Shown here in pieces: positions 5,523 to 32,128 of a stretch of DNA of 38,146 nucleotides. The stretch comes from Phycisphaerae bacterium. GTDB lineage: Bacteria; Planctomycetota; Phycisphaerae; JAAYCJ01. The DNA lies in the NCBI GenBank assembly GCA_012514125.1, contig JAAZAW010000314.1, positions 1-38,146 of the forward strand, written 5' to 3'. The notes under the pieces are model-generated. The model saw only the letters and a program-made list of their open reading frames with translations. It ran no database searches and was not told where the DNA came from. The translations under genes and the position numbers were made by a program. Positions within the stretch are counted from its first letter, which is position 1. Every line of letters begins with the position of its first letter.

Positions 5523-5755
5523 CGTACCTCCCGATTATTTGGTTATAGTTTATAAGGTAGTGCCCCTCGATTGAACGTCGATTAAGCCGGGAGATATTCC
5601 CGACATTATCCATCAGATTAATCTCATCCCCCCTTTCTGTCAAAATATATTTTGGTTTTGAGTTTTTCGGATGTTTCTATTAAAGTATTACACTATTGTT
5701 GCCCAGAGACAAAGGCAAACGCCTTAGTAGATATTTTTTAATCGAGGAGTGTTTA

Positions 5756-6598: not shown

Positions 6599-6636
6599 CA
6601 AAAACGATCCTGGAAAGATAAACGGAGAATAGAACG

Positions 6637-18298: not shown

Positions 18299-19519
18299 TT
18301 AAATGACTGTTTTTATCTTTTCCGCAATGCGGATTCCGAACTCTCGACACTGCTGCAACGCCGCTTGATCGGGAACATATTTAATATTGATCGGATCTCC
18401 GACCAGATCGACTTTCATCTCCGCCAGGATACCGGCGATGTCCTTGGCCCCTTCGCCGCTCCAGCCATACGAGCCGAAAACGCCTCCGACAAGATTTTGC
18501 GGTTTCAAACCCTTCAAATAGCAAAGCACATCTGCCAGCGTCGGAAACATCTGGTTATTGATGGTAGGGGACCCGACAACCAACCCCGCCGCTTCGAGCA
18601 CTTCCGTCGCTACGTCGCTTCGGTTCGAACCATGCATCGGCATGACCTTGATATCCTTCACTCCACCCGCCAGCAACCCCTCGCTGATTACCCCCGCCAT
18701 CTTCGCCGTGCTGCCCCACATAGTGTCGTAAACGATCACCGCTTTATTCTGCTTTTTCTGATGCCCCCATCGGCTGTACTGCTCAAGAATACGCCCGATA
18801 TCTTCCTTCCGCCGATAGATCGGCCCATGGTCCGGCGCAATAATGCTGATTGGCAGATTCATCTTCTGAACCTTATCCAGCGTCTTAAGCACAATCGGCG
18901 AATAAAGCATGATAATATTCGCGTAATACTTCGCAGCCTCGAAATCCAATATGCACGGATCCACCTCGTCCGCGAATCGCTGTTCGCTCGCCAGGTGCAT
19001 CCCAAAACCGTCCTGCGAAAAAAGCAATTCATCTTCCGCCAGATAGCTGAACATACTATCGGGCCAGTGCAGCATCCGCGTTTCGATAAAAGTCAACGTC
19101 ATATTCCCCAGACTCAGCGTCTCGCCGTCTTTCACCGGTGTAATTGTCGCAGGCTCAAAATGAAAATGGTCCACCAGCGCCTTTTGTCCCATCGTCGAAG
19201 CGAAAATCTTTTCAGGCTTAAACCATTCCATCGCCTGGGGCAATCCGCCCGAATGATCCAGCTCCGAATGATTGGAAACAATATACTGTATTTTCGCCGG
19301 ATCGATAATCGAAGCGATTCTCGCCCGCATCTGTTCCATAAACGGCGCTTTAACCGTATCGATCAGCGTGACCTTGTCAGCCAGCACCAGATAAGCGTTA
19401 TACGTGCTGCCACGTGACGTCGTATATCCATGAAAATCACGCAATGCCCAATCGCCCGCGCCTACCCAATAAACAAGATCGGTAACTTTAACTGCTTGTA
19501 ATGGTCCGTTCATCTTCAT
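18299..19519 (-). CDS. Flavodiiron protein (rubredoxin:oxygen/NO oxidoreductase type)
   Basis: Metallo-beta-lactamase-like diiron domain (VSNHSELDHSGG) followed by a flavodoxin-like domain (AVIVYDTMWGSTAKMA). Confidence 0.9.
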   Translation of the reverse strand: MKMNGPLQAVKVTDLVYWVGAGDWALRDFHGYTTSRGSTYNAYLVLADKVTLIDTVKAPFMEQMRARIASIIDPAKIQYIVSNHSELDHSGGLPQAMEWFKPEKIFASTMGQKALVDHFHFEPATITPVKDGETLSLGNMTLTFIETRMLHWPDSMFSYLAEDELLFSQDGFGMHLASEQRFADEVDPCILDFEAAKYYANIIMLYSPIVLKTLDKVQKMNLPISIIAPDHGPIYRRKEDIGRILEQYSRWGHQKKQNKAVIVYDTMWGSTAKMAGVISEGLLAGGVKDIKVMPMHGSNRSDVATEVLEAAGLVVGSPTINNQMFPTLADVLCYLKGLKPQNLVGGVFGSYGWSGEGAKDIAGILAEMKVDLVGDPINIKYVPDQAALQQCREFGIRIAEKIKTVI

Positions 19520-19531
19520 TCCCCCTCTTTC

Positions 19532-20032
19532 TTATTCAGCGTTCAATAAGGACGCCAATTCCTGATTTAAAATGGTAATATGTTTCATTTCTTCATGGAT
19601 AATAGAATCAATTTTCGCTTTCCCAAGTTCCGCCGGAACAATTCCCTTTAAACCCATATAAAAAATAATCGAATCTTTTTCAAGACCGATCGCGATCAGC
19701 AAAACTTCTTCCATCGTGATCCCCTGCGTGAAATATCGCATCGGATCCGCCTGATAATTAAACACTCTGCCGTCCGCCAACGCCTTGATATATCGGCCCG
19801 TCAATCCTTCCGGATCGAACGTCGCCGGTGCGCATTCCCTGCCCGATAATTCTCGCCGCATCTGCGTAAATGTCTGCTCATGCGTCTGCTCCATCTTCGC
19901 CAGTTCAAGCAGCGTAGCCTTAGCCTTCGGCGCAGAAATCACCTCCGCCGCCCGTTGATAAAACGCCGCGCCGTTTCGTTCGATTTTTTCGGCAATCTCA
20001 AAAATCTCATCCGCGTTGAATTTAATACCCAT
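19532..20032 (-). CDS. Ferritin-like diiron four-helix-bundle protein (rubrerythrin family, no rubredoxin domain)
   Basis: Two ExxH motifs (MEQTHE, HEEMKH). I prefer the ATG at 20032, which has a GGAG RBS, over the track's start at 20089. Confidence 0.7.
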   Translation of the reverse strand: MGIKFNADEIFEIAEKIERNGAAFYQRAAEVISAPKAKATLLELAKMEQTHEQTFTQMRRELSGRECAPATFDPEGLTGRYIKALADGRVFNYQADPMRYFTQGITMEEVLLIAIGLEKDSIIFYMGLKGIVPAELGKAKIDSIIHEEMKHITILNQELASLLNAE

Positions 20033-20207
20033 CGTAAAAACTCCAACTGTCAAAAAATCTTCGTAGAGTGGGCTTGGCCCACCATTCAATTTCTAATCTT
20101 TCCTCTTAACCTCTTCCCTGACGTCTTGACGGTTCACCTTTCTTCGCTTCCCGCCATACGCGCGAGGACGGCTGCGAACCGTCCCCGGCGTCTATTTTTA
20201 CCAGACT

Positions 20208-20696
20208 TTACTTGCGTTGTCCAAGGAAACTATCCATCATGAACAATCCATGCGCCGAATCCTTGATCATCCTGAGCTTCTGGACGATCTCGTCCGCGGA
20301 AGATTCCTCTTCCACCTGTTCACTGACGAACCATCCAAGCATGATCTCCGTCGCGTAGTCTTTTTCCTCTTTCGCCAGCGTCACAAGCTCTTTGATCGAC
20401 GCCGTGACCTTCTTTTCATGTCCCAACGCCGCTTCAAATGCCGCCAATGGCGAATCCCATTCTTTCGGCGGTGCTCCGACCTCGCTCAACACCACCCGGG
20501 CGCCTTGCTCATTTAGATAATGTCTGATCTTGTTCGCATGGCTCAGTTCTTCACCCGCCTGAACATTCATCCAGTTCGCGAATCCTTTCAAATTGTTCGC
20601 CTGGAAATATTCCGACATCGCCATGTAGATGTAACTCGAATAAAGTTCCATGTTGATCTGTTTGTTTAACGTCGAAGTCATTTTTTCACTCAACAT
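20208..20696 (-). CDS. ftn: Non-haem bacterial ferritin
   Basis: LNKQINMELYSSYIYMAMSEYF...AGEELSHANKIRHYL. ATG at 20696 with a GGAGGG RBS 7 nt upstream. Confidence 0.85.
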   Translation of the reverse strand: MLSEKMTSTLNKQINMELYSSYIYMAMSEYFQANNLKGFANWMNVQAGEELSHANKIRHYLNEQGARVVLSEVGAPPKEWDSPLAAFEAALGHEKKVTASIKELVTLAKEEKDYATEIMLGWFVSEQVEEESSADEIVQKLRMIKDSAHGLFMMDSFLGQRK

Positions 20697-20698
20697 TG

Positions 20699-21073
20699 TC
20701 AAACCCTCCATAATCCATGAATGTTACAATACTCTCGTGCAGTAATAACCGACGCTTCTATCTTGAAAATCGCTTCCGGCAAGTCGCCCGGTTTCAAAAA
20801 TTGACGATACGCCTTACCGTCCGCGATCAACTCGATCCATTCGATGTAGTGTTTTTCTTCCATCGGGTGAACCACGCTTCCAACTCTCACCTTATATCCG
20901 CCCTCGATCTTCTCGATCACCGGCACATGTTTTTCTTTCGCGGCATCCACGGTGTTTTCAACAAGCAACTTCATCGGCTTGCCGCAACATACCAGTTCGC
21001 CCTCGCCGCCATGTAGCACCTCAACCACATTCGCACAAATCTCGCACTTGTAAATCTCCAACTCTTTCGCCAT
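20699..21073 (-). CDS. dfx: Desulfoferrodoxin (2Fe superoxide reductase)
   Basis: Desulforedoxin-like domain [10 protein letters not shown]...VCCGKPM. SOR centre: [26 protein letters not shown] at 21073 with a GGAG RBS gives 124 aa. Confidence 0.9.
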
Positions 21074-21169
21074 CGCAGGCTCCTTTCTCTTGTTGTAAAT
21101 CGTTGTCAAATTTTCTCGTCGTCGCTCTTCGATAGGGCGGACCTTGCTCACACTCCTCGCCCGATAACG

Positions 21170-21826
21170 TCATTTCTTCTCTTCCGGCAATTTCTTGTGG
21201 CAGAACCACCAGTCATATCCCTGGTATTCCTTCATCCGTTCAACCGCCGATCTCTCATCCTGAGGCGGTGGAATGATCACATCGTCCTTGATCAATTCAT
21301 TTTCAGGCCAATTCGCCGGCAAGGCCACTCCCTGCTCCGTCGCCACCTGTAACCCTTTGACCATGCGCAGAATTTCGTCCATGTTCCGACCAAGCTCCTG
21401 CGGATAGTATAAAATCGCCCGAATCTTCCTTTGCGGATCGACAATAAAAGTCGCCCGCACAGTATTCGTCCCCTTGGCCGGGTGAACCAATCCCAGACGC
21501 TTGGCAACCTCGCCGTCGTCGGCGATTATCGGAAATTGAATTTGCGTCTTGAGATTTTTATTGATCCATTCCACCCATTTAAGATGGGCAAAAACCTGAT
21601 CGACGCTCATTCCGATCAAATCGCAGTTAAGCTTCTGAAAATCGTCATACCGTTGTTGAAACGCGTAAAACTCCGTGGTGCATACCGGGGTGAAATCGGC
21701 GGGATGGCTGAAAAAAACCACCCATCTTCCTTTAAACGCCTCGGGAAGTTTCATCGGCCCGTGCGTCGTTTTCACCTCGATCTCCGGAAACGGATCGCCC
21801 AGTAAAGGCATCTTGCATTCTTCCAT
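21170..21826 (-). CDS. Peroxiredoxin (Prx6-like, PVCTTE active site)
   Basis: [14 protein letters not shown] and the C-terminal YDWWFC. I prefer the ATG at 21826, which has an AGGAGG RBS 7 nt upstream. The track ORF extends to 21904 and would add a hydrophobic leader. Confidence 0.85.
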
Positions 21827-21928
21827 CGCTTTTCCTCCTAAAACAAGTAAGAATATCAAACAACCCATCACACCCACAGCATACCCACTATATCGTTTCA
21901 TCACATTACCCCCCCGGTATTAAAACGA

Positions 21929-22501
21929 TTACCAGTTTTCTGCGAGCACCTCAAAATAATCCTTCGGATGCGCACATGCCGGACACGCTTCCGGCGCTTC
22001 CGTCCCTTCATGCAAATATCCGCAATTCCGGCATCGCCAGACTACAGGCTTGTCTTTCTTGAACACCGTGCCCGATTCCACATTCGCCAGCAATCCGCGA
22101 TAACGCCGTTCATGCTGTTTTTCCGCCACCGAAACCTTCTCAAAAACTTTCGCAATAGCTTCAAAACCTTCTTCACGCGCTTCTTGGGCAAACTGGGCGT
22201 ACAACGTCGTCCATTCATGGTTTTCACCATCCGCTGCCGCCTTGAGATTCTGTGCCGTCGTTCCGATCACACCTGCCGGAAACGCCGCAACGATTTCAAC
22301 ATCTCCGCCTTCAAGAAACTTGAAAAATCGTTTCGCATGTTCTTTCTCCTGGTCTGCCGTTTCCGCAAAAATATCCGCGATCTGGACATACCCTTCTTTC
22401 TTCGCCTGACCCGAAAAATACGTATACCGATTTCTCGCCTGAGATTCTCCGGCAAACGCAGTCAGCAGGTTCTTTTCTGTCTTCGTTCCTTTAATACCCA
22501 T
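21929..22501 (-). CDS. rbr: Rubrerythrin
   Basis: GTKTEKNLLTAFAGESQARNRY, EEKEHAK-type diiron motifs, and a C-terminal rubredoxin-like WRCRNCGY...CPACAHPK. ATG at 22501 gives 190 aa. Confidence 0.9.
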   Translation of the reverse strand: MGIKGTKTEKNLLTAFAGESQARNRYTYFSGQAKKEGYVQIADIFAETADQEKEHAKRFFKFLEGGDVEIVAAFPAGVIGTTAQNLKAAADGENHEWTTLYAQFAQEAREEGFEAIAKVFEKVSVAEKQHERRYRGLLANVESGTVFKKDKPVVWRCRNCGYLHEGTEAPEACPACAHPKDYFEVLAENW

Positions 22502-22546
22502 TCTTCGATCCTTTCCAAAAATCCAAAACATGGTGTTATACTCTCT

Positions 22547-22567
22547 GTATGTTCAACTCAAACATAC
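22547..22567. promoter_or_regulatory. Perfect 7-7-7 inverted repeat upstream of rubrerythrin (candidate operator)
   Basis: GTATGTT 22547-22553, a 7-nt spacer, then AACATAC 22561-22567. It lies 46-66 nt upstream of the rbr ATG, next to TATAAC on the minus strand. Confidence 0.35.
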
Positions 22568-22608
22568 AATCCAATAACCATCGTCAAAATGGCCCGTCCG
22601 CCATCTTC

Positions 22609-22668
22609 CTGTCATTCCCGCGCAGACCCGAATCCAGAAACGGCTCAAGCCGTTGTACAATTCTCTTC
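22609..22668. repeat. Intergenic repeat family, copy A (core)
   Basis: ctgtcattcccgcgcagacccgaatccagaaacggctcaagccgttgtacaattctcttc aligns with copies B2 and C. Confidence 0.85.
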
Positions 22669-22732
22669 TTGGCGTCTTGGCGGTTCCAAACTCTTTCTTC
22701 TCCCGACTTTCTCAACTCTCTTATCTATCAAC

Positions 22733-23251
22733 TCACACCACCGCCACGACCTTTTCAATCGCCTTCATCGCCGCATCATAATCCGGCTCGCTACCGACAT
22801 CTTCAACGATTTGTTGATATTGAATCTTCCCTTCCGGATCGATCACAAGCACCGCCCGGGCCAACAAATACAATTCGTCAATCCGCAATCCATAAGCCTT
22901 TCCGAATTTCCCTTCTCGATAATCCGAAAGGGTTTTAACATTCTTGATCTCGTGCGCACCGCACCATCGTGTCTGGGCAAACGGCAGGTCCATACTCACA
23001 ACAAGCATCTGCACCGATTCATCAAGCTTGCTTGCCTTTTCGTTGAATTTTTTTGTCTCCAAATCACATACAGGCGTATCCAGCGATGGAACCGAAATCA
23101 AAACCACTGTCTTGCCCCGAAACGAACTAAGTTTCACAGGCTTAAGTTCCGTATCGATCAACTCCGAATCCGGAGCCTGATCTCCGACCTCAAGTCCCTG
23201 GCCCACCAAATGTAACGTATTGCCTTTAAATGTCACTGTTCTTTCATTCAT
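22733..23251 (-). CDS. tpx: Thiol peroxidase (atypical 2-Cys peroxiredoxin Tpx)
   Basis: VTFKGNTLHLVG, VGDQAPD, and ISVPSLDTPVCDLETKKFNE. Confidence 0.9.
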   Translation of the reverse strand: MNERTVTFKGNTLHLVGQGLEVGDQAPDSELIDTELKPVKLSSFRGKTVVLISVPSLDTPVCDLETKKFNEKASKLDESVQMLVVSMDLPFAQTRWCGAHEIKNVKTLSDYREGKFGKAYGLRIDELYLLARAVLVIDPEGKIQYQQIVEDVGSEPDYDAAMKAIEKVVAVV

Positions 23252-23326
23252 AATTGATCCCTTCCCTCATCTATAAAGTTTTAGTTTTCATAATTTTCGT
23301 CTAGCGAACTCTGTCGCCACACATCC

Positions 23327-23356
23327 CTGTCATTTCCGTGAAAGCAGGAATCCAGA
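23327..23356. repeat. Intergenic repeat family, partial copy B1 (first module only)
   Basis: ctgtcatttccgtgaaagcaggaatccaga. The hairpin TTCC(G/T)..GGAA is retained in a variant form. Confidence 0.7.
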
Positions 23357-23388
23357 GTTTGCATCAACGTCTTCGTAACCCTCACGAT

Positions 23389-23447
23389 CTGTCATTCCCG
23401 CGAAGGCGGGAATCCAGAAACGGCTCAAGCCGTTGTACAATCCTCTT
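23389..23447. repeat. Intergenic repeat family, copy B2 (best-preserved core with two hairpins)
   Basis: ctgtcattcccgcgaaggcgggaatccagaaacggctcaagccgttgtacaatcctctt. Hairpins TTCCCGC-gaag-GCGGGAA and AACGGC-tcaa-GCCGTT, plus the palindrome TTGTACAA. Confidence 0.9.
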
Positions 23448-23489
23448 CCAACTTCCAACTTCCAACTTCTAACTTCTAACTTCTAACTT
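23448..23489. repeat. Heptamer tandem repeat (CCAACTT)3(CTAACTT)3
   Basis: Six exact 7-bp units read directly from the sequence. The TAG stop of the permease gene (23476-23478) lies inside the array. Confidence 0.9.
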
Positions 23490-24762
23490 CTCTCCCCTCC
23501 TCTTCTCTCAACCTCGCAGTAAATCCCAGGTTATTCACTTCCCGTATCGCCTCTTCAACATCAATATCCCTGCCATAAACCTTCGCCTGCGCACTTTTCA
23601 TATCCACTTCGGCGCTTTGGACACCGGAACTTTGTAAAAGAGCATTTTCGACCGATTCGGCACATTCAGGACAACTCATTCCCTCGACGTCGAATATAAT
23701 CATCTCCTTTGTCCTGTCAAGCTCAGTTTTCCTTTCCATGCGATTCCATCGGCGATAAATCGCAGGCCCGATGAGCATGCCAAGAAAAACCACCGATCCG
23801 ATACTTTTAATAAAATCCGATATCGGAGTCTCTGCCATAATCTGACTCGCCATCGCCGCCCGATCCGCCAAAAAAATCTGATCCAGCAAAAGTCCCGCTG
23901 CCAGCGCCGTCACCGCTGTTGTTAACAAATAAATCCCGGTCGTCCGCGAACCCATGATCCTCCAGATCGTCGCAATCGCCGCCGCGTTTGTCGCCGGTCC
24001 ACTGATCAAAAAAACCAACGCCGCTCCCGGCGAAACTCCCTTCGCCATCAACGCCATCGCCATCGGAACCGACGCCGATGCGCACACATACGACGGTATC
24101 CCCACAGCCATCATCACCAGCATCGCTCCGATACCACCAGACATGAAAGTCTGCGAAAAATACTCCGCCGGGACAAAAACCGCAATCAAGCCCGCAATCA
24201 AAATACCCACAAGGAGTGATTTTCCGATATCCGCAGGCAAAACCACAAATCCATGATGCAGCACCTGATAAAATCGATTCCGCTTCGGACGACCCAGATT
24301 GCAGCAATCGCCTTCACATGCCGGAATCTCCTGATCCTTCTGGGGCCGACGAGCATCAATAAAATTAATCATCAGACCGCTGATAAATCCGCTCACGATG
24401 GAAACGATCGGGCGAAAAATCGCGAAAACTCCGCCCAGCAAACTATAAGTCACCAGGATACTATCAACGCCGATCTGGGGCGTGGACATCAAAAACGAAA
24501 TCGTCGCTCCTCTGCTGGCGCCGTGACGACGAATCGATGTCGCCACCGGAATCACACCACAGGAACACAACGGCAACGGCACTCCAGCCAGTGTCGCCTT
24601 AATAAGTGGCTTAATTCCATGACCTCCAAGATGTTTCTCCACCGTCGAAGGAGAAACCAACACCGACAAAAGACCCGCAATAAAAAAACCAAAAATCAGG
24701 TAAAGCGACATCTCGCCCAAAAGGTCCCACATCTCCATCAATATATTCTGGACAACGTCCAT
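23476..24762 (-). CDS. Predicted metal permease (DUF318/ArsP-type, PLCSCG motif) fused to a C-terminal heavy-metal-associated (HMA) domain
   Basis: Multi-TM protein with LAGVPLPLCSCGVIPVA. C-terminal IIFDVEGMSCPECAESVENAL...AKVYG is a ferredoxin-like HMA fold with the GMxCxxC motif. Confidence 0.75.
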   Translation of the reverse strand: MDVVQNILMEMWDLLGEMSLYLIFGFFIAGLLSVLVSPSTVEKHLGGHGIKPLIKATLAGVPLPLCSCGVIPVATSIRRHGASRGATISFLMSTPQIGVDSILVTYSLLGGVFAIFRPIVSIVSGFISGLMINFIDARRPQKDQEIPACEGDCCNLGRPKRNRFYQVLHHGFVVLPADIGKSLLVGILIAGLIAVFVPAEYFSQTFMSGGIGAMLVMMAVGIPSYVCASASVPMAMALMAKGVSPGAALVFLISGPATNAAAIATIWRIMGSRTTGIYLLTTAVTALAAGLLLDQIFLADRAAMASQIMAETPISDFIKSIGSVVFLGMLIGPAIYRRWNRMERKTELDRTKEMIIFDVEGMSCPECAESVENALLQSSGVQSAEVDMKSAQAKVYGRDIDVEEAIREVNNLGFTARLREEEGREVRS

Positions 24763-24870
24763 AACTTACCCCTTCTCTCCAGCATCCCACAGCTTCAGCC
24801 ATATTTCAAAATATTTTCAACCCGCATTTTACTTTGGTTTTCATAAGGTGGACTCTACCCACCACCTTCC

Positions 24871-24957
24871 CTGTCATACCCGCAAACGCCCGAATCCAGA
24901 AACGACTCAGGCCGTTATACAATCCTCTTCCAACTTCCAACCTCTAACTTCTAACTG
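24871..24957. repeat. Intergenic repeat family, copy C (core plus 4 degenerate heptamers)
   Basis: ctgtcatacccgcaaacgcccgaatccagaaacgactcaggccgttatacaatcctcttc followed by ccaactt ccaacct ctaactt ctaactg. Confidence 0.85.
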
Positions 24958-24961
24958 ACTT

Positions 24962-25783
24962 TTATCTCCCCCTCCCCGTCCCAAGCATCTCCCCAACTTC
25001 CGTATCCTTTCGTATTCCCATCCGCGTCAACGAAAAATCATACTTCACCGCGTCACTGGGCGAAAATCTCCGAAATCCTGACGTAATTTCACAAGCCGTC
25101 CGAATATCCGCTTGCCGACGTCGGGTCAACCCGAACAACAACCCAATCCGGTGCATGTGTGTATCAAGCGGCACAATCAATCGCGACCGCGAAACCCGAT
25201 CCCAGCCGCCGGGGTCCACCGCGTCCTTACGGATCATCCATCTTAAGTACAAATGAATCCGTTTAAATGCGCCTTTTCCATTCGGAATCGGCAGTAAACT
25301 GTTTCGTTTGTCAAAAGGCTTGCTCAACTTGCGAACAAACTCGCGGGCCGCCATATCCAACGTCTCATCATCGCTGTTGCATCCATACAGAAAACACGAC
25401 TCAAGCGAGCCATAATATTCCAAAACGCCTTTAATGCCCATCAACATCCGTACCATGTCGTCGCCGGTGGTAAATCGATGCTTGAAATCCGTGAACCGTT
25501 CCCGCATCTGACGCTCCGAATTTGTCATGACAAATTCCCTGGGACGACCCATCCTGCCCAGCACCTTTTCTACACTTTTCAAAATCTGCGCCACACGGCC
25601 ATACGCCAAACCCGATGCCACCAGTCCCACAATTTCACGATCGCTCATATCCTCATAATTATAAAGGAATTGCAACGGATCCGGATTCACATATTCCCGT
25701 CGATTATACCGGGCGTAAATCGCTTCGAGCTTTTCCGTATCAAAAATCACGCCGTTTGTTCTTTCTTCTTCGTCAGCTTGCAC
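24962..25783 (-). CDS. DUF2400/TIGR02757-like protein (possible HhH-type DNA-glycosylase-like fold)
   Basis: DPLQFLYNY, GLVASGLAYGRV, LIVPLDTHMHRIGLLFGLT, and KYDFSLTRMGI. The family name is from memory. The start is uncertain: GTG at 25783, or GTG at 25750, which overlaps the upstream TGA as GTGA. Confidence 0.55.
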   Translation of the reverse strand: MQADEEERTNGVIFDTEKLEAIYARYNRREYVNPDPLQFLYNYEDMSDREIVGLVASGLAYGRVAQILKSVEKVLGRMGRPREFVMTNSERQMRERFTDFKHRFTTGDDMVRMLMGIKGVLEYYGSLESCFLYGCNSDDETLDMAAREFVRKLSKPFDKRNSLLPIPNGKGAFKRIHLYLRWMIRKDAVDPGGWDRVSRSRLIVPLDTHMHRIGLLFGLTRRRQADIRTACEITSGFRRFSPSDAVKYDFSLTRMGIRKDTEVGEMLGTGRGR

Positions 25784-26178
25784 TCAGGACACAAACCGGT
25801 GAAAATCACTTCATAAGACTTTATTTCAAAATCAGTTAACGTCTGAACTATCTTTTGGATGTCGTCGTGCGGATTCATCGGCAAATCGATCATCGCGTTG
25901 CAGCACAGACAACGAAAATGAAGGTGGGGGGTTGAATTCCCATCATACCGCTTTTGCCCGCCGCCGTCGAGCCGGAGAATCATTCCTTCGGTTGCCATCT
26001 GTTCAAGGTTTCGATACACCGTTCCCATGCTGATTATCGGCAGCTCTTTTCGCACCATTTCATAAATAACATCGGCGCTTGGATGTGTCACAACACTTTC
26101 CAAAGCGTTAAGAATCGCTCGACGCTGCGGCGTCAGATATTTTTTTTTCTTTTGACTTTCAGGTTTTCCGGCACTCAC
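25747..26178 (-). CDS. perR: Fur-family transcriptional regulator, PerR-like by genomic context
   Basis: LTPQRRAILNAL, THPSADVIYEMV, GTVYRNL, HLHFRCLCCN, and a C-terminal CPEC (two CxxC pairs). I prefer the GTG at 26178, which has a GGAG 8 nt upstream. The track's TTG at 26244 coincides with a -35-like hexamer. Confidence 0.8.
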   Translation of the reverse strand: MSAGKPESQKKKKYLTPQRRAILNALESVVTHPSADVIYEMVRKELPIISMGTVYRNLEQMATEGMILRLDGGGQKRYDGNSTPHLHFRCLCCNAMIDLPMNPHDDIQKIVQTLTDFEIKSYEVIFTGLCPECKLTKKKEQTA

Positions 26179-26197
26179 TTTGAATTCTCCAAAATGA

Positions 26198-26244
26198 GAA
26201 TAGTAATCATTCCTAAATTGTAATCGGAAATTTTTAAAATGCAA
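26198..26244 (-). promoter_or_regulatory. Candidate sigma70-type promoter with an overlapping 7-1-7 Fur/PerR-type box
   Basis: The minus strand reads TTGCAT(26244-26239)-N16-TACAAT(26222-26217)-ttag-GAATGAT-T-ACTATTC(26212-26198). The half-sites match 5/7 as an inverted repeat. Confidence 0.45.
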
Positions 26245-26513
26245 GACCTTTTTAGGAAAAAATCCGAAGAAAGTATTTTACTGAATAGATGCTGTTTTAG
26301 GGATGAATATTATTTAATTTAATACGTTTCGGTCATTTTACGCCGATCCGCTCTCGCCCAATGGCTGAAACTTTCTTAGACTTTCGGGGCGATTACAAAT
26401 TTTATCAAAAACGCTGCTTGTCCAGTTCAATTAATCCTTTACAACTTCATTGTGCGGCGTTAAGATTGTAAAATTACTTGGCCCAAAGTGCCAGCCAGAA
26501 GGAGCATGCCGAA

Positions 26514-27293
26514 GTGCTAGCCCGACGAATTATACCATGCCTTGATGTCAATAAGGGTCGCGTTGTTAAGGGTATTAATTTCCTTAACTTACGAGACGCG
26601 GGAGATCCTGTGGAAGTGGCCCGGCGATATGAGCAGGCCGGCGCGGATGAACTGGTTTTTCTGGACATTACCGCCAGCCATGAAGGGCGCGATATTATTT
26701 TGGATGTGGTTCGAAGCACCGCCCAGCAGATATTTATGCCGTTGACGGTAGGGGGGGGCATTCGGACTATCGAGGATATTCGCCGATTGCTTAACGCGGG
26801 CGCGGACAAGGTTTCGATCAATACGGCTGCGGTGAAAGACCCGGAGCTGGTGACGGCGGCATCGCGTCGATTCGGCAGGCAGTGCATTGTGGTCAATATT
26901 GATCCCAAACGGGTTTACGATAGCGGGAAAGAGGTTTGGGAAGTGCATATTAACGGCGGCAGGGTTCGGACGGGACTCGAGGCGGTGGTCTGGGCGAAGG
27001 AAATGGAACGCCGGGGCGCCGGTGAGATTGTCCTGACGAGCATGGACGCCGACGGTACGCAGAATGGATATGATTTACCGATGACTCGCGCGGTGAGCGA
27101 GGCGGTGGATATTCCTGTGGTGGCCAGTGGGGGGGCAGGTTCGCCGCAGCACATTCTGGAGGTCCTGACCGAAGGCAAGGCGGACGCGTCGCTGGCGGCG
27201 AGTATTTTTCATTATGAAACGCATCCCATTGGCGAGGTCAAACAAATTCTGGCAGAACATCATGTGCCGGTGCGGATTGTCGAACCGGTGTAG
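26514..27293 (+). CDS. hisF: Imidazole glycerol phosphate synthase, cyclase subunit HisF
   Basis: [31 protein letters not shown], and [12 protein letters not shown] at 26514 with a GGAG 9 nt upstream gives a family-typical N-terminus. Confidence 0.9.
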
Positions 27294-27353: not shown

Positions 27354-28508
27354 ATGAGTGAAGTATCCAATGGCGATGGACAGATTTCGATCGAATCGAC
27401 GGATATGTCCTCCGGTGAAGCCAAAATTGCATCTTTGTTCAAGGCGTTGATCAAACTTGGTGGTTCGGATTTACATCTTAAGGCGGGTGCCAAGCCCCGA
27501 ATTCGTTTGCAGGGGAGTTTAAAGGCGCTGGCGATGGATCCTTTGACGGATGAGCAGATCCTGGAGATGATGTTTGCGATCATGTCACCGGCCCACAAGG
27601 AACATTTCAAGGTCAATGGTGCGTCGGACTTTGCGTATGATCTTCATGGTCAGGACCGTTTTCGTATCAACGTTTTTCGTCAGCGGGGTGTGACGTCGGT
27701 GGCGGCCCGCCGTGTGACGCGGACGATTCCGACCCCGGAGCAGCTTCACCTGCCTCCTCACATGCTCAAGATCGCCGATGCCCGACAGGGGTTGATTTTG
27801 CTTTCGGGAATTACAGGCTCGGGTAAGAGCACCACGATCGCGGCGATGATCGAGTATATCAATATGGGGCGCGCGTGTCACATCGTGACACTGGAAGACC
27901 CGATTGAATATCTTTTCGAGGACCGCAAGTCGTTTATCAACCAGCGTGAAATCGGCATCGACGTGAATAATTTTCACGACGGGATCAAGTACCTGATGCG
28001 TGAAGACCCGGATGTCGTGCTGATTGGTGAAATGCGTGACAAGGAAACTTTTTCCGCGGCATTGCAGGCGGCGGAGACCGGTCACCTGGTATTCGGAACG
28101 GTTCACGCCTCGACGACGGCCCAGACGATTTCCCGTTTGCTGGATATGTTTCCCGCGGAGGAACGGGCGTTGATTCGTCAGTCGCTGGTGTTCAATTTGC
28201 GGGCGATCGTTACGCAGAAGCTTTTACCGAGCATTCTGGAGGGAGTGAGCCGGGTTCCGGCGGTGGAAATTCTGTTGACGAATCCGATGGTCAAAAAACT
28301 GATCGAAGACAGCCGTGAGACTGAAATCACCTCGATTCTCCGGAGCAGTTATCGCGACGGGATGCAGGATTTCACCGAATCGTTGCGTCAGTTGGTGGAC
28401 AAGGAATGGATCGAAGTCGAGGTGGCGTATGAAGTGGCGCCGAATCCGGAAGAATTGAAGATGCGGCTGCGGGGTATTTCGACCGGCGGTGGTGGGATTT
28501 TAGGATAA
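27354..28508 (+). CDS. pilT: Type IV pilus retraction ATPase PilT family
   Basis: GSDLHLKAG, RFRINVF, Walker A SGITGSGKSTT, Asp box TLEDPIEY, Walker B DPDVVLIGEMRD, and His box TGHLVFGTVHA. All are intact. Confidence 0.9.
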   Translation: MSEVSNGDGQISIESTDMSSGEAKIASLFKALIKLGGSDLHLKAGAKPRIRLQGSLKALAMDPLTDEQILEMMFAIMSPAHKEHFKVNGASDFAYDLHGQDRFRINVFRQRGVTSVAARRVTRTIPTPEQLHLPPHMLKIADARQGLILLSGITGSGKSTTIAAMIEYINMGRACHIVTLEDPIEYLFEDRKSFINQREIGIDVNNFHDGIKYLMREDPDVVLIGEMRDKETFSAALQAAETGHLVFGTVHASTTAQTISRLLDMFPAEERALIRQSLVFNLRAIVTQKLLPSILEGVSRVPAVEILLTNPMVKKLIEDSRETEITSILRSSYRDGMQDFTESLRQLVDKEWIEVEVAYEVAPNPEELKMRLRGISTGGGGILG

Positions 28509-28586
28509 GGCCGTCAAAAAGAAATCCAAAGAGACGATTCGTCAGAGTGTGTCTCTTTGATGAAACAGAAACCTTGGAGTACACTT

Positions 28587-30272
28587 ATGCTGGAAAATTT
28601 GATCTTGGGACAGGAGGCTGCGGTTCGTCTTCCGGAGATACCGGGGGAAGGTGGTTTTTTCAGTCTGGCGAAAATTATCGTCATGCTCGTGTTCATCTTT
28701 CTTTGGGCGCCGCCGGCGGGCTGGTGTGCCCGCGACGCTAAGCGGCTTAGCATCAACCAGTTCATGTGGGGTTGTGTGATCCTGAGCGGCGGAGTGCTCG
28801 GTTGGTTTTTCTGGTTTTTTGTACCGATTTACGCGGTGGGGTTGTTGTTCAATATCCTGCTGGCGTTCGGTGTGATTGTGGCTTACGCCGTTTATCGGGA
28901 TACGCTGGTCAATGATGACGAACGGATTTTAAAACCCTCGAATTTGCTCGCGGCGATCAAGGGCGAATCGGCGGGCGCTTCCTTCGAGGTGGTTGAAAAA
29001 GTTCGTTTGGCCAATTCCGCGGGACGCGAGCCCAAGATTCCGGAAGACCCCGAAGAGCAGAAATATTACCAGGCCTTCCAGGACCTGATGTTCGATGTAC
29101 TCTGGCGGCGTGCGGAGGAATTGTTCGTTCAGCCTGCCGGTGAAACCATGAAAATCCTGTTTCGCATCGACGGTGTAATCGCGGAATATGGTCATTGGGA
29201 TCGCGCTTTGGGGCAGTCGGTCATTCAGTATGTCAAGACGATCTGTGGATTGGATGTGAACGAACATCGCCAACCCCAGAAGTCCAAGTTAATGGCTCAG
29301 CAGGTTCACGTCGACCGCAAGGTGACGCTGGATATTGAAACCGCCGGCTCGCGGGCGGGCGAAAAACTGGTGATCCGGATTCGCGCGGAGGAAGCGAAGT
29401 TCACCGTTACCGATATCGGATTTTCCGATGAGCAGATCGCCAAGGTTCAAAGTTCCATCGACGCGAAAAAAGGACTCGTGCTCATCAGCGGCATGGGTCA
29501 TGCGGGACTCACGAGTACGATTTACGCCATTGGGCGAAGTATGGACGCGTTTGTTCAGAACATTCACAGCGTCGAGACCAAGCCGTTGATGGAGCTTGAC
29601 AATATCACCCAGAACATTTACGAGGCGGGATCGGATAAATCTTTCGCCCGTTACTTGCAGACGATTTCCCGGCGTGAACCTGATATTCTTCTGGTCGATC
29701 CGTGCAAAGACGCCGAGACGGCCAAGATGATCGTTCAACTGGTGTCGGGAAAGAATAAGAAAGTCTTTACCACGCTCCATGCGACCAATACGCTGACCGC
29801 CCTGGGACGGATGATGAAGTGGAACGAATCGCCGGAACAGGTGGCGGACACGGTGCTGGCGGTGATGTTTCAACGTCTGGTTCGTAAGCTGTGTCCCGCC
29901 TGTCGGGAGGCGTATAAACCCAATCCGGAGACGCTACGGAAGATGAATCTTTCGAGCCGCGAAAATGTGACGTTTTATCGTCCGCCGTCCCAGCAGATGG
30001 TGGACAAGAAGGGAAATCCGATCGTTTGTGCAACCTGCCAGGGCAGCGGGTATGTCGGCAGGACCGCCGTTTTTGAGACCATGTTTATCGATGACAACCT
30101 TCGCGAGGCGATTCGCAGCGGCGAGGGTCGGGCGATCAAATCGGCGGCCCGGAAGTCGGGTTTGAAATACTGGGACGAATCGGCCCTGGAAAAAGTGCTT
30201 GCGGGAATCACGAGCGTTCAGGAAATAATTCGCGTAAGCAAAGAAGCCCAGATGGCGATCAAGAAGGACTAG
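28587..30272 (+). CDS. Membrane-anchored GspE/PilB-family protein with degenerate nucleotide-binding motifs (predicted pseudo-ATPase)
   Basis: About three N-terminal TM helices (aa 36-113 in track numbering). GspE N2-like FRIDGV...GLDVNEHRQPQKSK. In place of the Walker A, SGMGHAGLTST; in place of the Walker B, PDILLVDPCKD. The tetracysteine CPAC...CATC and GYVGRTAVFE are retained. I prefer the ATG at 28587 (GGAG 7 nt upstream); the alternative is 28560. Confidence 0.75.
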   Translation: MLENLILGQEAAVRLPEIPGEGGFFSLAKIIVMLVFIFLWAPPAGWCARDAKRLSINQFMWGCVILSGGVLGWFFWFFVPIYAVGLLFNILLAFGVIVAYAVYRDTLVNDDERILKPSNLLAAIKGESAGASFEVVEKVRLANSAGREPKIPEDPEEQKYYQAFQDLMFDVLWRRAEELFVQPAGETMKILFRIDGVIAEYGHWDRALGQSVIQYVKTICGLDVNEHRQPQKSKLMAQQVHVDRKVTLDIETAGSRAGEKLVIRIRAEEAKFTVTDIGFSDEQIAKVQSSIDAKKGLVLISGMGHAGLTSTIYAIGRSMDAFVQNIHSVETKPLMELDNITQNIYEAGSDKSFARYLQTISRREPDILLVDPCKDAETAKMIVQLVSGKNKKVFTTLHATNTLTALGRMMKWNESPEQVADTVLAVMFQRLVRKLCPACREAYKPNPETLRKMNLSSRENVTFYRPPSQQMVDKKGNPIVCATCQGSGYVGRTAVFETMFIDDNLREAIRSGEGRAIKSAARKSGLKYWDESALEKVLAGITSVQEIIRVSKEAQMAIKKD

Positions 30273-30337
30273 ACGATGTGTCATACGGAACGATTTGAGA
30301 CTGTGAACCAGAGAAAATATATTACGGAGGTTTTGCC

Positions 30338-32128
30338 GTGTTATTCGTAATCCTTTCCTTATTGCTCTTTGCCGGCATCGCGTTTTTTCAGACGCTTCAG
30401 GGAACGTACAGCGCCCTGATCATGGTGGTGCTGACGATCCTGTCGGCGGCTTTATCGGCGAACTATTATGGTGTGCTCAGCCAGGCGTTCTTTATCGAAT
30501 ATATTCCCGACTATGCCGACGCGGTATCGCTGGCGGCGATTTTTTTCATTACGCTGATGGTGCTTCGGACGCTGTCGGACCATTTCATTCGTTCCAATAT
30601 CGTGATTTATCCGCTGCCGGATCGGATTTGCGCGGGGCTGTTGAGTATTCCCTCGGCGCTGCTGATCGTGGGCATGGGCAGTATTTCACTTGAACTGTTG
30701 CCGTATAACGACCAGGTCATGCTTTTCGATCGTTTCAAGACCACTAATGGCAAGACCGTTCAAAAAGGGATTTTTCCGTTCGCCGATGAATTCACCGGCG
30801 GGTTGCTCGCGAAACTCAGCAACGGCAGTTTGAGAAGCGGCGACGATATGGACAAGAAATTCGGTGCGGTTCATTCGGATTGGGCCTCGGAGACCAGCGC
30901 CGGCCGAATCGCGATTCAGAAAGAATCTCGCCATGCGGTGGTGAAAGATGCGGTTCGGGTCACTCGGGTCTGGAAGTTGACCAGTCCGCTGGTTGTGAAG
31001 AATTTTGAACTCAACCGGAGATATCACGGTGGAGCGTGGGAAAAGCAGGTCACGCTGGGCGAAAAGCGCTATGCGAGCGACAATGCTTCATACCTGGCCA
31101 TGACGATCGAACTGGATTCCCGTGCGGCGGACGGCGACGGGTTTCATCGTTTCGGATGGGGGCAGGTCCGCCTTGTCGGATTCAAGGGCAATCCCGCAAA
31201 CGAACGGATGATGAATATGTACGCGATCGGATTTCGCGATCCGAGCAAGTCGGCGGAATTTGATTATATGCGGGTAAACGTTCCCATTGAGCCTCCCGCG
31301 GAGGATGATGAGGCCGAGCCGGGCCGGCGGAACTATGGTCCGATTTCGAAAAACAACACCTTTGATGTGGTGTTTGAAGTACCAGAAGATTTCACCCCGT
31401 GGTTCCTTGAATATAAACGCTGGGCGAGGGCATCGATGCCGAAGATGCAGGATGGAAAGACCGCCGAGCCGGAATCGGTGGTGACGGTGCCGACGGATAC
31501 GCAGTCCCCGGCAGGCGGATCGGTCGGGGAGACGGAGCGGGCGGGCTGGCATAGCGAACTGCAGGTCGATTCGAATCGAACGCGGTTCACGAAGGAATTG
31601 CCCTTTACTGTTAAACTCGATGCCGTTCGCAACGCCGGCGATGCGGAATTTGACGGAAGCGAGTTTGCACGGGGACGAATCGCCGGAGATCTCGGAACCG
31701 GTCAAGGCTCGCTGAATATCGGTATCAGTGCGACGATTCGGGAATTTTCCGTTCCGCAGGATAAACGATTGCTGCGGGTGGAATGCGACTTTAGTCCGGC
31801 TCAGAATTCCCTGCTTCAGAAAATTTTCGGCGCGGTTCAGGGCGTGTCGCAGAAAAAAGCCATTTCCAAAGACGGTACGACGTTTTTGCCGGTCGGCCAG
31901 TATGTGATGGTCAATGATTCGAATGGTCAACAGGTCGAGTTGATTTATGAACCGGACATGGAAGGGCAGGCAATGACCTTTCAGAAGGTTCAGATGAGCC
32001 GGCTCAGGGGCAGCGGCGGCAAGATCGGGCTGTTGTATCTGGTCCCGCCGGGAACGGAACTTTCACGGTTTGAAATCGGTGGGGTTCCCATCGAGGCACA
32101 AACGCTGCAACTGTCGGCTCCGCGATAA
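30338..32128 (+). CDS. CvpA-like four-TM membrane domain fused to a ~470-aa C-terminal domain of unknown function
   Basis: GTG start with a GGAGG RBS 7 nt upstream. The N-terminus resembles the CvpA family (TM helices, DRICAGLLSIPSALLIVGMG). I do not recognise the remainder. Confidence 0.6.
   Translation: MLFVILSLLLFAGIAFFQTLQGTYSALIMVVLTILSAALSANYYGVLSQAFFIEYIPDYADAVSLAAIFFITLMVLRTLSDHFIRSNIVIYPLPDRICAGLLSIPSALLIVGMGSISLELLPYNDQVMLFDRFKTTNGKTVQKGIFPFADEFTGGLLAKLSNGSLRSGDDMDKKFGAVHSDWASETSAGRIAIQKESRHAVVKDAVRVTRVWKLTSPLVVKNFELNRRYHGGAWEKQVTLGEKRYASDNASYLAMTIELDSRAADGDGFHRFGWGQVRLVGFKGNPANERMMNMYAIGFRDPSKSAEFDYMRVNVPIEPPAEDDEAEPGRRNYGPISKNNTFDVVFEVPEDFTPWFLEYKRWARASMPKMQDGKTAEPESVVTVPTDTQSPAGGSVGETERAGWHSELQVDSNRTRFTKELPFTVKLDAVRNAGDAEFDGSEFARGRIAGDLGTGQGSLNIGISATIREFSVPQDKRLLRVECDFSPAQNSLLQKIFGAVQGVSQKKAISKDGTTFLPVGQYVMVNDSNGQQVELIYEPDMEGQAMTFQKVQMSRLRGSGGKIGLLYLVPPGTELSRFEIGGVPIEAQTLQLSAPR

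Follow-up and report, generated by a model that had tools for sequence, protein, structure and literature searches.

To our knowledge, ATPases of the PilT/PilB type have been described solely as the motors that drive pilin-based filaments and related secretion systems, in which they are soluble and active; in phyla other than the Planctomycetota their genes occur in pilB-pilT-pilC clusters. CvpA, a widespread inner-membrane protein, has been obscure in function since its discovery, the only functional lead for its family being an envelope-related role, and there is little molecular explanation for the cell biology of the Planctomycetota, with its enlarged periplasm, uptake of macromolecules and division without FtsZ. 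CvpA has been tied genetically both to bile-salt resistance and to the sigma-E response to envelope stress, its function being described as otherwise largely unknown (bioRxiv 10.1101/2020.09.25.314492).

Here we describe a planctomycetal gene trio that brings these two families together. The trio is unusual in that an apparent PilB pseudo-enzyme is welded into the membrane across a phylum and paired consistently with a CvpA-like protein, an intact PilT being the usual third gene. A literature search returned no membrane-anchored dead PilB/GspE, no link between PilT and CvpA and no description of such a module, in keeping with an earlier note on this DNA, made from the sequence alone, whose author knew of no system of this composition. 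The module, built from parts of a type IV filament motor, is thus apparently undescribed, and it supplies a testable partner for the poorly understood CvpA family.

The locus and its products

The window (the whole stretch of 38,146 nucleotides that was analysed) is an entire Phycisphaerae MAG contig, on which ORF calling placed three consecutive genes (A, B and C) on the forward strand. The features discussed below are as follows.

26478..27293, forward strand: hisF (TIGR00735), directly 5' of gene A; a conserved syntenic neighbour that may lie outside the module
27354..28508, forward strand: gene A, PilT/PilU-family hexameric ATPase with intact motifs, 384 aa (NLE30151.1)
27807-27833, forward strand: Walker A of A, GITGSGKST, intact
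27891-27911, forward strand: Asp box of A, LEDPIEY, intact
28011-28040, forward strand: Walker B of A, DVVLIGEMRD, intact
28095-28112, forward strand: His box of A, GTVHAS, intact
28287-28310, forward strand: MVKKLIED of A, in place of the AIRNLIRE motif (alignment)
28587..30272, forward strand: gene B, membrane-anchored PilB/GspE paralogue with dead motifs, 561 aa (NLE30152.1)
28653..28907, forward strand: three N-terminal TM helices of B, in place of a soluble N1/MshEN domain (hydropathy, AF2)
29490..29513, forward strand: degenerate Walker A of B, GMGHAGLT, Lys to Leu (alignment to PilF)
29682..29711, forward strand: degenerate Walker B of B, DILLVDPCKD, catalytic Glu to Pro (alignment to PilF)
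29892..30038, forward strand: tetracysteine (Zn) motif of B, CPAC...CATC, with a DKKGNPI insert (alignment)
30338..32128, forward strand: gene C, 596 aa (NLE30153.1), CvpA-like membrane protein extended by a large C-terminal region
30338..30694, forward strand: CvpA-like four-TM domain of C, aa 1-119 (Colicin_V, AF2, hydropathy)
30695..32125, forward strand: beta-rich C-terminal region of C, aa 120-596, at least two beta domains, predicted periplasmic (AF2)

Taking the ATG at 28587 as the start of gene B, the spacers are 78 nt (A to B) and 65 nt (B to C), the values that the earlier note had given for three same-strand genes. This start is the NCBI call (561 aa), is preceded 8 nt upstream by a GGAG, and is where conservation begins in the alignment of B orthologs; other possible starts lie at 28557 and 28560. 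The flanking genes, which had been read as housekeeping, scored above their TIGRFAM cutoffs (hisF, TIGR00735, 392 versus 295 bits; coaD, TIGR01510, 168 versus 103 bits), and scans for promoters and terminators yielded nothing decisive on operon structure.

Protein A matched the pilT_fam model (TIGR01420) with 408 bits against a cutoff of 319 and aligned to Aquifex PilT with 323 bits. With its four catalytic motifs present, the description of the first gene as a fully intact PilT-type ATPase was borne out, and by family membership protein A is, as judged from sequence, a bona fide T4aP-type retraction ATPase. Likewise, the Walker A, Asp box, Walker B and His box were all kept in 55 of 55 PilT sequences linked to this module. 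The AIRNLIRE motif of retraction-competent PilT, which is required for PilT function in pilus retraction, was found neither in protein A nor in the linked PilT clade, where the corresponding position reads [ST][VI]RKLIxE and carries the Asn in none of the 55 sequences.

Protein B matched PF00437 (T2SSE) with 198 bits and fell far below the equivalog cutoffs both of its best NCBIfam match, GspE (TIGR02533, 216 versus 630 bits), and of PilB (TIGR02538, 205 versus 676 bits). Its AF2 model aligned by Foldseek to PilF, PilB, GspE and EpsE with E values of 7e-34 to 1e-30 and TM-scores of 0.65-0.77, the match at 7e-34 having a TM-score of 0.75. No T2SSE_N/N1 domain (MshEN; PF05157) was matched in the protein, nor did residues 1-168 match any Pfam family. 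Hydropathy segments at residues 23-41, 63-81 and 81-99 agreed with AF2 helices at 27-53, 58-78 and 82-107, and these helices are conserved across all orthologs; the N-terminal tail is acidic and the first loop basic. The assignment of the middle protein to the GspE/PilB family with about three TM helices is thereby upheld. A likeness of this region to small PLDc_N-type TM domains was considered and discarded, as no match supports it.

In alignment with Thermus thermophilus PilF, the Walker A sequence GPTGSGKS is replaced in protein B by GMGHAGLT, the Asp box IEDPVEYE by VETKPLME and the Walker B core VGEIRD by VDPCKD; the His of the His box and the tetracysteine motif remain in place. The inactivation of the catalytic motifs claimed at the outset thus held on proper alignment, the Walker A Lys and the Walker B Glu both being gone. 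The DKKGNPI insert, which is specific to the B family, served as the search pattern for the family. The Walker A Lys was present in none of 82 B clusters, its position holding a hydrophobic residue (L, V, I or M) in 76 and Arg in two, and the Walker B Glu and the His-box His were kept in 34 and 9 of the 82, respectively. The four zinc cysteines were found in every cluster, and together with the Walker A Gly and Thr/Ser, the first Asp-box Glu and the Arg and Gln of an R-x-P-Q motif they make up the invariant residues of the family. Protein B is a PilB/GspE-family pseudo-enzyme, to all appearances catalytically dead in every member examined.

The Colicin_V model (PF02674) matched residues 5-126 of protein C with 18.4 bits, below its cutoff of 29.3, and the orthologs at loci L013, L015 and L022 with 36.8, 34.8 and 32.0 bits, above it. 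The partner genes at L103 and L104 are listed as Colicin_V, and the partner protein from Planctellipticum aligned to the C profile with 96.6% probability (hhalign). AF2 placed four helices over residues 2-119, in accord with hydropathy, and R77, D81 and D95 in the loop between TM3 and TM4 are invariant in the alignment, a pattern that would fit a conserved cytoplasmic contact. We also considered a divergent PilC/GspF and rejected it, as there is no T2SSF signal and orthologs exceed the CvpA threshold.

The remainder of protein C is predicted to be rich in beta strands (about residues 200-370 and 405-590, pLDDT 70-90). Residues 125-596 matched no Pfam family, no PDB sequence was matched at E <= 1 by a profile search with this region, and Foldseek comparison of the AF2 model with the PDB gave only generic beta-sandwich and jelly-roll folds (best E 0.01, TM-scores <=0.11). 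A weak bias in loop charges and the likeness to MarP, discussed below, suggest that this region is periplasmic. The C family profile recovered 803 cluster representatives at E <= 1e-30. In Planctomycetia the orthologs consist of a plain CvpA protein, 194-250 aa in length. Of what had been said about the third protein, the CvpA-like four-TM domain is supported by the ortholog scores and the AF2 model, and the domain of about 470 aa is present here as a lineage-specific extension, carried by C in Phycisphaerae, that the Planctomycetia do not share.

Conservation of the gene arrangement

In a neighbourhood survey of 105 loci, which collapsed to 82 B clusters (the denominators below are the clusters testable in each case), the gene after B was CvpA-like in 76 of 77 clusters, at a median distance of 18 nt. 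PilT is encoded just upstream of B in 44 of 69 (about two thirds), adjoining it far more often than any other gene does, and it does so in both Phycisphaerae and Planctomycetia; it was replaced once by an intact FHA-GspE ATPase. At the Planctomycetia loci L022, L103 and L104 the pilT stop codon and the start of B share nucleotides, which implies translational coupling. In the remaining third or so of the B-C pairs no PilT is adjacent, and unrelated genes lie upstream or hisF abuts B. The gene order is retained even where identity falls to 26% for B and to 25% for C, the flanks being otherwise unrelated. With over 100 loci showing it, the arrangement is not due to chance; the named members of the module are all Planctomycetota, the Planctomycetia branch of B alone comprises 545 clusters, and both the B and the C families are large and under purifying selection.

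The difference between the two counts (76 of 77 for the B-C pairing, only 44 of 69 for PilT) identifies the dead PilB and the CvpA-like protein as the invariant core. As about one third of the pairs have no adjacent PilT, PilT is not obligatorily linked in cis and the core may work without it. The trio does co-occur in related and in distant genomes, with order and strand unchanged, PilT being a frequent but not a universal member. We note that in 19 of 58 clusters, drawn from both Phycisphaerae and Planctomycetia, the upstream neighbours include hisF, which stands directly before B in several lineages. It is as persistent as many PilT neighbours, so that deep synteny is possible at this locus without an obvious functional link.

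Candidate roles of the module

The reading that we favour, tentatively and at a little short of an even chance, is that B and C constitute an inner-membrane module, found throughout the Planctomycetota and derived from a type IV filament motor set, through which PilT acts. Protein B would have exchanged its soluble N-terminal docking domain for three TM helices and lost catalysis, to become a fixed, PilB-shaped membrane adaptor that forms an ATPase-docking or platform layer, in a role parallel to that of PilM/GspL and PilC/GspF in pili. It would pair with C via membrane or juxtamembrane parts and recruit the PilT hexamer, whose ATP-driven conformational cycle would act on, or be regulated through, the B-C complex towards the periplasmic side. 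On the strength of the motifs, PilT would be the sole ATP-hydrolysing component, both here and wherever else it is encoded directly upstream of B (about two thirds of lineages). The complementary motif states (the Walker A Lys in 0/82 B clusters as against all four motifs in 55/55 PilTs) count in favour of this proposal, and the adjacency of PilT to B, the overlap of the two genes, the occurrence in both classes and the replacement of PilT by an active T2SSE-type ATPase argue for a functional need of an active partner. From these patterns we infer a physical complex of B, C and PilT, the direction in which energy or signal would pass, and independence from pilins; that PilT powers the complex and that it operates without a pilus, much as the earlier note suggested in speaking of a self-contained membrane machine, are plausible predictions. 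If the complex forms, the type IV filament motor would be seen in a new use, CvpA would be placed in a biochemical setting and the planctomycetal envelope would gain a conserved, genetically tractable component.

As the earlier note had remarked, pilus and secretion genes are missing from the window: Pfam searches of all ORFs of at least 150 aa found no pilin, PilC/GspF, PilM/GspL, prepilin peptidase or secretin in it, and a scan of it for the prepilin motif G[FMYW][ST][LM]xE was equally empty. Across the survey that motif occurred at 2 of 105 loci (about 1.1 Mb of flanks), and no PilC/GspF, PilM/GspL, prepilin peptidase or secretin was present among the called genes of L001-L006, L019-L022, L103 and L104. 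Planctomycetes scatter their pil genes, however, so absent neighbours do not prove absent partners, and independence from a conventional pilus is not demonstrable by neighbourhoods, as illustrated by L061, where a canonical PilB lies 4 kb from the B-C pair, and by Rhodopirellula baltica, in which PilT, T2SS-E, PilC and PilM genes are annotated and the first three are clustered. The R. baltica cluster (RB12773, PilT, 368 aa; RB12774, T2SS-E, 596 aa; RB12781, PilC, 479 aa), which is salt-induced, was considered as an ortholog of the trio, but its PilC annotation and its non-overlapping 40-nt spacing suggest that it is more probably a canonical cluster.

It is possible, if rather unlikely in our estimation, that the module belongs, as an accessory or a regulator, to a conventional planctomycetal T4P or T2SS-like system whose pilins, PilC, PilM-Q and PilD have their genes elsewhere. 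Retraction would then be controlled by B, as a membrane anchor or decoy through which PilT is positioned, sequestered or gated, and the CvpA-like protein would couple this to an envelope cue. The family score of PilT as a T4aP-type retraction ATPase speaks for this, as do the canonical PilB/GspE proteins in the same genomes (PilB at L061, the FHA-GspE at L014), the R. baltica gene set, and the order of a pilT, a pilB-like and a polytopic gene, which resembles the pilB-pilT-pilC clusters of other phyla. DUF1559 pseudopilin-like genes also adjoin cvpA at L103 and L104, although DUF1559 genes are so numerous in Planctomycetia that this adjacency could be chance. Against it stand the rarity of the prepilin motif, the absence of PilC/GspF, PilM or secretin from the called genes of the loci listed above, and the altered AIRNLIRE position in the linked PilT clade. 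If true, pilus retraction would be controlled in a new way, by a decoy or anchor that holds PilT at the membrane. The opposite possibility, a pilin-independent machine in which PilT has been captured by a membrane-embedded, dead PilB-shaped stator and a CvpA-family platform and performs mechanical or gating work on the cytoplasmic membrane or the periplasm, we hold to be equally doubtful; its target could be, for example, the periplasmic beta-domain of C or an envelope component. Such a machine would open a new class of systems driven by PilT and would give the CvpA family a mechanistic partner for the first time.

We consider it improbable that B and C form a structural or sensory complex that works independently of PilT and is tied to envelope homeostasis, as suggested for CvpA, with the dead domain as a cytoplasmic scaffold or ligand sensor and PilT, like hisF, a case of inherited synteny. 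The near-universal B-C pairing, the third or so of pairs that lack PilT, the lineages with hisF directly before B and the link of CvpA to envelope stress and bile-salt resistance would all be accounted for, and the retained P-loop Gly/Thr, Asp-box Glu and R-x-P-Q residues could form a pocket that binds something other than hydrolysable ATP. Yet PilT is the commonest neighbour, in both classes, overlaps B in Planctomycetia, and in its sole observed replacement gave way to another active T2SSE-type ATPase.

That B is instead an active NTPase with a non-canonical P-loop, making the locus a set of two motors like an extension/retraction pair, is very improbable: the family does preserve the overall fold, the Zn motif and some of the nucleotide pocket, and Arg occupies the Lys position in 2/82 clusters, but that position is hydrophobic in 76/82, the His-box His is lost in 73/82 and the Walker B Glu in 48/82, the protein of the window is without both Lys and Glu, and a P-loop NTPase that loses its Walker A Lys no longer hydrolyses nucleotide. 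An anti-phage defence system was likewise rejected, PADLOC giving only weak, generic P-loop matches (E >= 7.7e-6).

Comparison with known systems

Akin to the type IVa pilus clusters of Myxococcus and Geobacter (PilB/PilT/PilC), the locus encodes an ATPase, a second ATPase-family protein and a polytopic membrane protein in similar order; A belongs to the PilT/PilU family, above the family cutoff, and B shares with PilB the N2 and C-terminal ATPase fold and the tetracysteine motif. As opposed to PilB, B has no N1/MshEN domain, carries three TM helices and is predicted to be catalytically dead, the AIRNLIRE motif of A is altered relative to type IVa PilT, and the third gene is CvpA-like rather than T2SSF/PilC, with no pilin, PilM-Q or PilD nearby. 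The GspE-GspL-GspF assembly of the T2SS offers a further parallel, since in both cases an ATPase is held at the membrane beside polytopic or bitopic partners. However, GspE is soluble, tethered by GspL and active, whereas B would be tethered by its own helices and inactive, and no Gsp partners, pseudopilins or secretin lie beside the module.

Two related nucleotide-binding proteins that are co-encoded, one depending on or scaffolding the other, are also seen in PilT-PilU pairs and among the atypical or non-catalytic ATPase partners of type IV filament machinery (TadZ/CpaE and FlaH), although PilU is active and soluble, unlike B, and TadZ and the archaellum protein FlaH belong to other P-loop families. 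PilU has been described as dependent on PilT (PMC13142100). On the side of protein C, the N-terminal four-TM domain is shared with Escherichia coli CvpA and with Mycobacterium tuberculosis MarP (Rv3671c). MarP is a CvpA-like four-TM domain fused to a periplasmic domain, and in C this domain likewise precedes a large region that is probably extracytoplasmic; in contrast to MarP, the extension of C is beta-rich, with no protease or other recognisable domain. We know of no pairing of either CvpA or MarP with T2SSE-type ATPases.

Gene layout and predicted products

The window makes up one complete contig (38,146 bp) of a MAG from Phycisphaerae (Planctomycetota). The three genes, designated A, B and C and encoding NLE30151.1, NLE30152.1 and NLE30153.1 in the NCBI records, lie as follows:

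26478-27293, hisF, directly upstream of the module
27354-28508, + strand, A, a PilT of 384 aa
28287-28310, + strand, position of the AIRNLIRE motif of A, reading MVKKLIED
28557-30272, + strand, ORF of B, a predicted membrane-anchored PilB/GspE paralogue; probable start ATG 28587, giving 561 aa
30338-32128, + strand, C, a CvpA-like protein of 596 aa; GTG as start codon, with GGAGG before it

ORF calls bore out the earlier note's description of three + strand genes with spacers of 78 nt (A-B) and 65 nt (B-C), flanked by hisF (TIGR00735, 392 bits) and by a convergent coaD downstream (TIGR01510, 168 bits). The start of B is most likely ATG 28587, since NCBI makes the same call, a GGAG lies 8 nt 5' of it and ortholog conservation begins there. 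Within the B-C spacer, a sigma-70-like promoter match, TTGAGA-17-TATATT (10/12), was found at 30295-30323; C may also have a promoter of its own.

The PilT-type ATPase had been described as intact, and this holds: A scores 408 bits against TIGR01420 (cutoff 319) and 323 bits against Aquifex PilT, and all four of its catalytic boxes are complete. Judged by these scores and motifs, A is an ordinary PilT and belongs to the PilT/PilU family; it carries MVKKLIED where the AIRNLIRE motif is expected.

B, by comparison, contains the complete T2SSE domain (198 bits) but scores far under the equivalog cutoffs for GspE (216 versus 630 bits) and PilB (205 versus 676 bits), with no N1/T2SSE_N domain. Alignment to T. 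thermophilus PilF, the residue-level reference, upheld the claim that its catalytic motifs are inactivated: Walker A GPTGSGKS is changed to GMGHAGLT, the Asp box IEDPVEYE to VETKPLME and Walker B VGEIRD to VDPCKD, while the His-box His is retained, as are the two CxxC pairs. The roughly three N-terminal TM helices proposed for B were recovered by hydropathy, which marks three hydrophobic segments, an acidic N-tail and a basic first loop, and by AlphaFold2 (AF2), whose model (pLDDT 75) places helices at 27-53, 58-78 and 82-107, followed by an N2-like domain and the ATPase core. Foldseek matched this model to PilF, PilB and EpsE (E = 7e-34 to 1e-30; TM-scores up to 0.77). Confidence in the AF2 models is moderate (pLDDT 73-75), and topology is based on hydropathy and charge bias. 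The TM segments, the PilB fold match and the broken motifs therefore make B a predicted membrane-tethered, PilB-shaped pseudo-ATPase.

Motif residues of B in the 82 B clusters (proteins collapsed at 90% identity)
Walker A Lys: 0/82 clusters; L 36, V 24, I 10, M 6, A 3, R 2
His-box His: retained in 9/82
Walker B Glu: retained in 34/82
Invariant residues: the last Gly of Walker A and the Thr/Ser after it, the first Glu of the Asp box, Arg and Gln of R-x-P-Q, and the four cysteines of the Zn motif

The mixture of lost catalytic residues and invariant ones points to selection, not decay, with a specific non-catalytic state of B being maintained. Between the Cys pairs, a 14-aa insert, DKKGNPI, is a signature of the family. 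B lacks three defining features of PilB/GspE (catalytic residues, an N1 domain and scores at equivalog level), and despite its PilB/GspE fold the labels GspE, PilB or TadA that current annotation gives it are not appropriate.

C has four N-terminal TM helices by AF2 and hydropathy. Of the two Pfam models that the earlier note proposed to search with, PF00437 matches the T2SSE domain of B; PF02674 (Colicin_V/CvpA) matches C itself weakly (18.4 bits, cutoff 29.3), but C orthologs exceed its threshold (36.8, 34.8 and 32.0 bits). At the family level, the N-terminus of C is assigned to CvpA. The remaining 475 aa, predicted by AF2 to form beta-rich domains, had no match in Pfam, PDB sequences or PDB folds, in line with the unassignable C-terminal region of about 470 aa first noted. 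Going by the charges of its loops, C would have an N-out/C-out topology, with the extension in the periplasm. M. tuberculosis MarP has the same arrangement of a CvpA-like TM part and a periplasmic extension.

Conservation and gene order of the module

Homologs of C and B, together with genome and metagenome scans, yielded 104 loci (numbered with the prefix L), in which ORFs were tallied from stop-to-stop frames and HMM scores and MAG taxon labels were taken as given. The trio recurs in related genomes, as the reading in the earlier note requires, with the same order in both classes of the phylum. A CvpA-like gene lies directly 3' of B in 76 of the 77 clusters with enough sequence (median gap 18 nt, 10th-90th percentile 3-65 nt), and PilT is directly 5' of B in 44/69 clusters, a slight undercount (e.g. 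L070). The sole exception to the B-CvpA order, L096, has a purN-like gene after B (L096:7771-8403).

Gene order is still kept where identity has dropped to 26% in B and 25% in C. The Phycisphaerae form of C is long, about 550-650 aa; some lineages have a medium form of about 350-400 aa; and in Planctomycetia the protein is a plain CvpA of 194-250 aa (L103, Pirellulales; L104, Planctomycetaceae; L022; and L019, the cultured Planctellipticum variicoloris). In three of the Planctomycetia loci, L022, L103 and L104, pilT and B overlap, the stop codon of the former with the start of the latter. With 803 representatives (50% identity) matching the C profile at E <= 1e-30 and 545 clusters in the Planctomycetia branch of B at E <= 1e-50, the B-C family is large and old, and no oddity of a single MAG; all taxon-named matches covering the B TM region are from Planctomycetota.

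The Walker A Lys, Asp box, Walker B Glu and His box are present in all 55 distinct PilTs encoded beside B. These proteins have a variant, [ST][VI]RKLIxE, in place of AIRNLIRE, its Asn being replaced by Lys or Gln in 55/55, which suggests that the module-linked clade is a specialised PilT paralogue. In one case, a Phycisphaerae MAG (L014), PilT is replaced by a 603-aa FHA-domain GspE/PilB-type ATPase (L014:4131-5942; T2SSE 382 bits, FHA 58 bits) with all motifs intact. Thus, going by predicted activities, the dead B is regularly partnered by a live T2SSE-type ATPase.

The gene hisF lies upstream in 19/58 clusters, preceding pilT in 12 and abutting B in 7; this adjacency occurs in both Phycisphaerae and Planctomycetia (the window, L004-L009, L022, L028, L029, L031-L048, L103 and L104), and otherwise the flanks consist of unrelated housekeeping genes. 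In E. coli, cvpA is transcribed together with purF, and the upstream hisF and the purN-like gene of L096 may reflect a recurrent link of CvpA genes to purine/histidine (PRPP/AICAR) metabolism. In L103 and L104, a DUF1559/SBP_bac_10 (pseudopilin-like) gene and a 271-aa unassigned gene adjoin the short cvpA (L103:10717-12936; L104:8790-10659), in opposite orientations; the adjacency could be due to chance, as such genes are abundant in Planctomycetia.

Other genes of the window

Pfam searches of the window recovered transketolases, a methyltransferase, an M48 peptidase, SMC, an FGE-sulfatase, an M50/CBS protease, a DNA methylase and haem biosynthesis genes, along with the following:

3567-7605, full-length transketolase/DXS-like gene (- strand) adjoining a split transketolase (+ strand), whose N- and C-terminal parts are separate genes
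9955-11748, 597-aa FlgI-like/HEAT protein with a partial flagellar P-ring (FlgI) domain (82 bits) and HEAT repeats, adjoining SMC; no further flagellar genes in the window
18299-26244, - strand, dense oxidative-stress/metal cluster: flavodiiron-like ODP with flavodoxin, two rubrerythrins, ferritin, desulfoferrodoxin, two peroxiredoxins, an ArsP-type permease with an HMA domain, DUF2400 and a FUR-family regulator

The last of these suggests an anaerobic or microaerophilic lifestyle.

Filament partners and possible functions

As the earlier note had it, the window is devoid of PilC/GspF, PilM/GspL, prepilin peptidase and secretin (Pfam, all ORFs of at least 150 aa) and of pilins (six-frame scan for the prepilin motif). 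Nor did 1.1 Mb of flanks contain pilus genes, a prepilin motif occurring in just 2/105 loci; all other parts that define a type IV filament system are missing in all neighbourhoods examined. On the best-supported reading, the module derives from the type IV filament motor set: B would serve as an adaptor of PilB shape, fixed and embedded in the membrane, with C as its obligatory membrane partner and PilT as the usual energy source. Gene linkage and the motif states of B and PilT are direct observations; we infer a physical A-B-C complex, its direction of coupling, the periplasmic site of the C domain and its output.

The main alternative, that B and C are part, or a regulator, of a conventional pilus or T2SS-like system with its genes at other sites, would fit the scattering of such genes in planctomycete genomes, and a PilT-less B-C pair (L061) indeed has a canonical MshEN PilB/GspE 4 kb upstream (L061:2-1711, - strand, cut by the locus end; TIGR02538, 619 bits), which shows B to be an additional paralogue and not the sole PilB of the organism. 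Rhodopirellula baltica, moreover, has adjacent, high-salinity-induced genes for PilT (RB12773, 368 aa), T2SS protein E (RB12774, 596 aa) and 'PilC' (RB12781, 479 aa) (PMC2754498), which probably form a canonical pilus motor cluster rather than an A-B-C module. The empty flanks and the altered AIRNLIRE motif of the linked PilT clade argue against this alternative. A second one, in which B and C work without PilT, is consistent with the one third of loci that have no adjacent PilT and with the sole functional lead on CvpA, a preprint that links it genetically to the sigma-E envelope stress response and bile-salt resistance (bioRxiv 10.1101/2020.09.25.314492). Given its broken motifs, it is very unlikely that B is still active.

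Literature searches turned up no description of a PilT/dead PilB/CvpA module. If the module were a pilin-independent, PilT-driven machine, which we consider possible but on the unlikely side, it would represent a new kind of system. The gene slot taken by C is that of PilC in pilB-pilT-pilC clusters.
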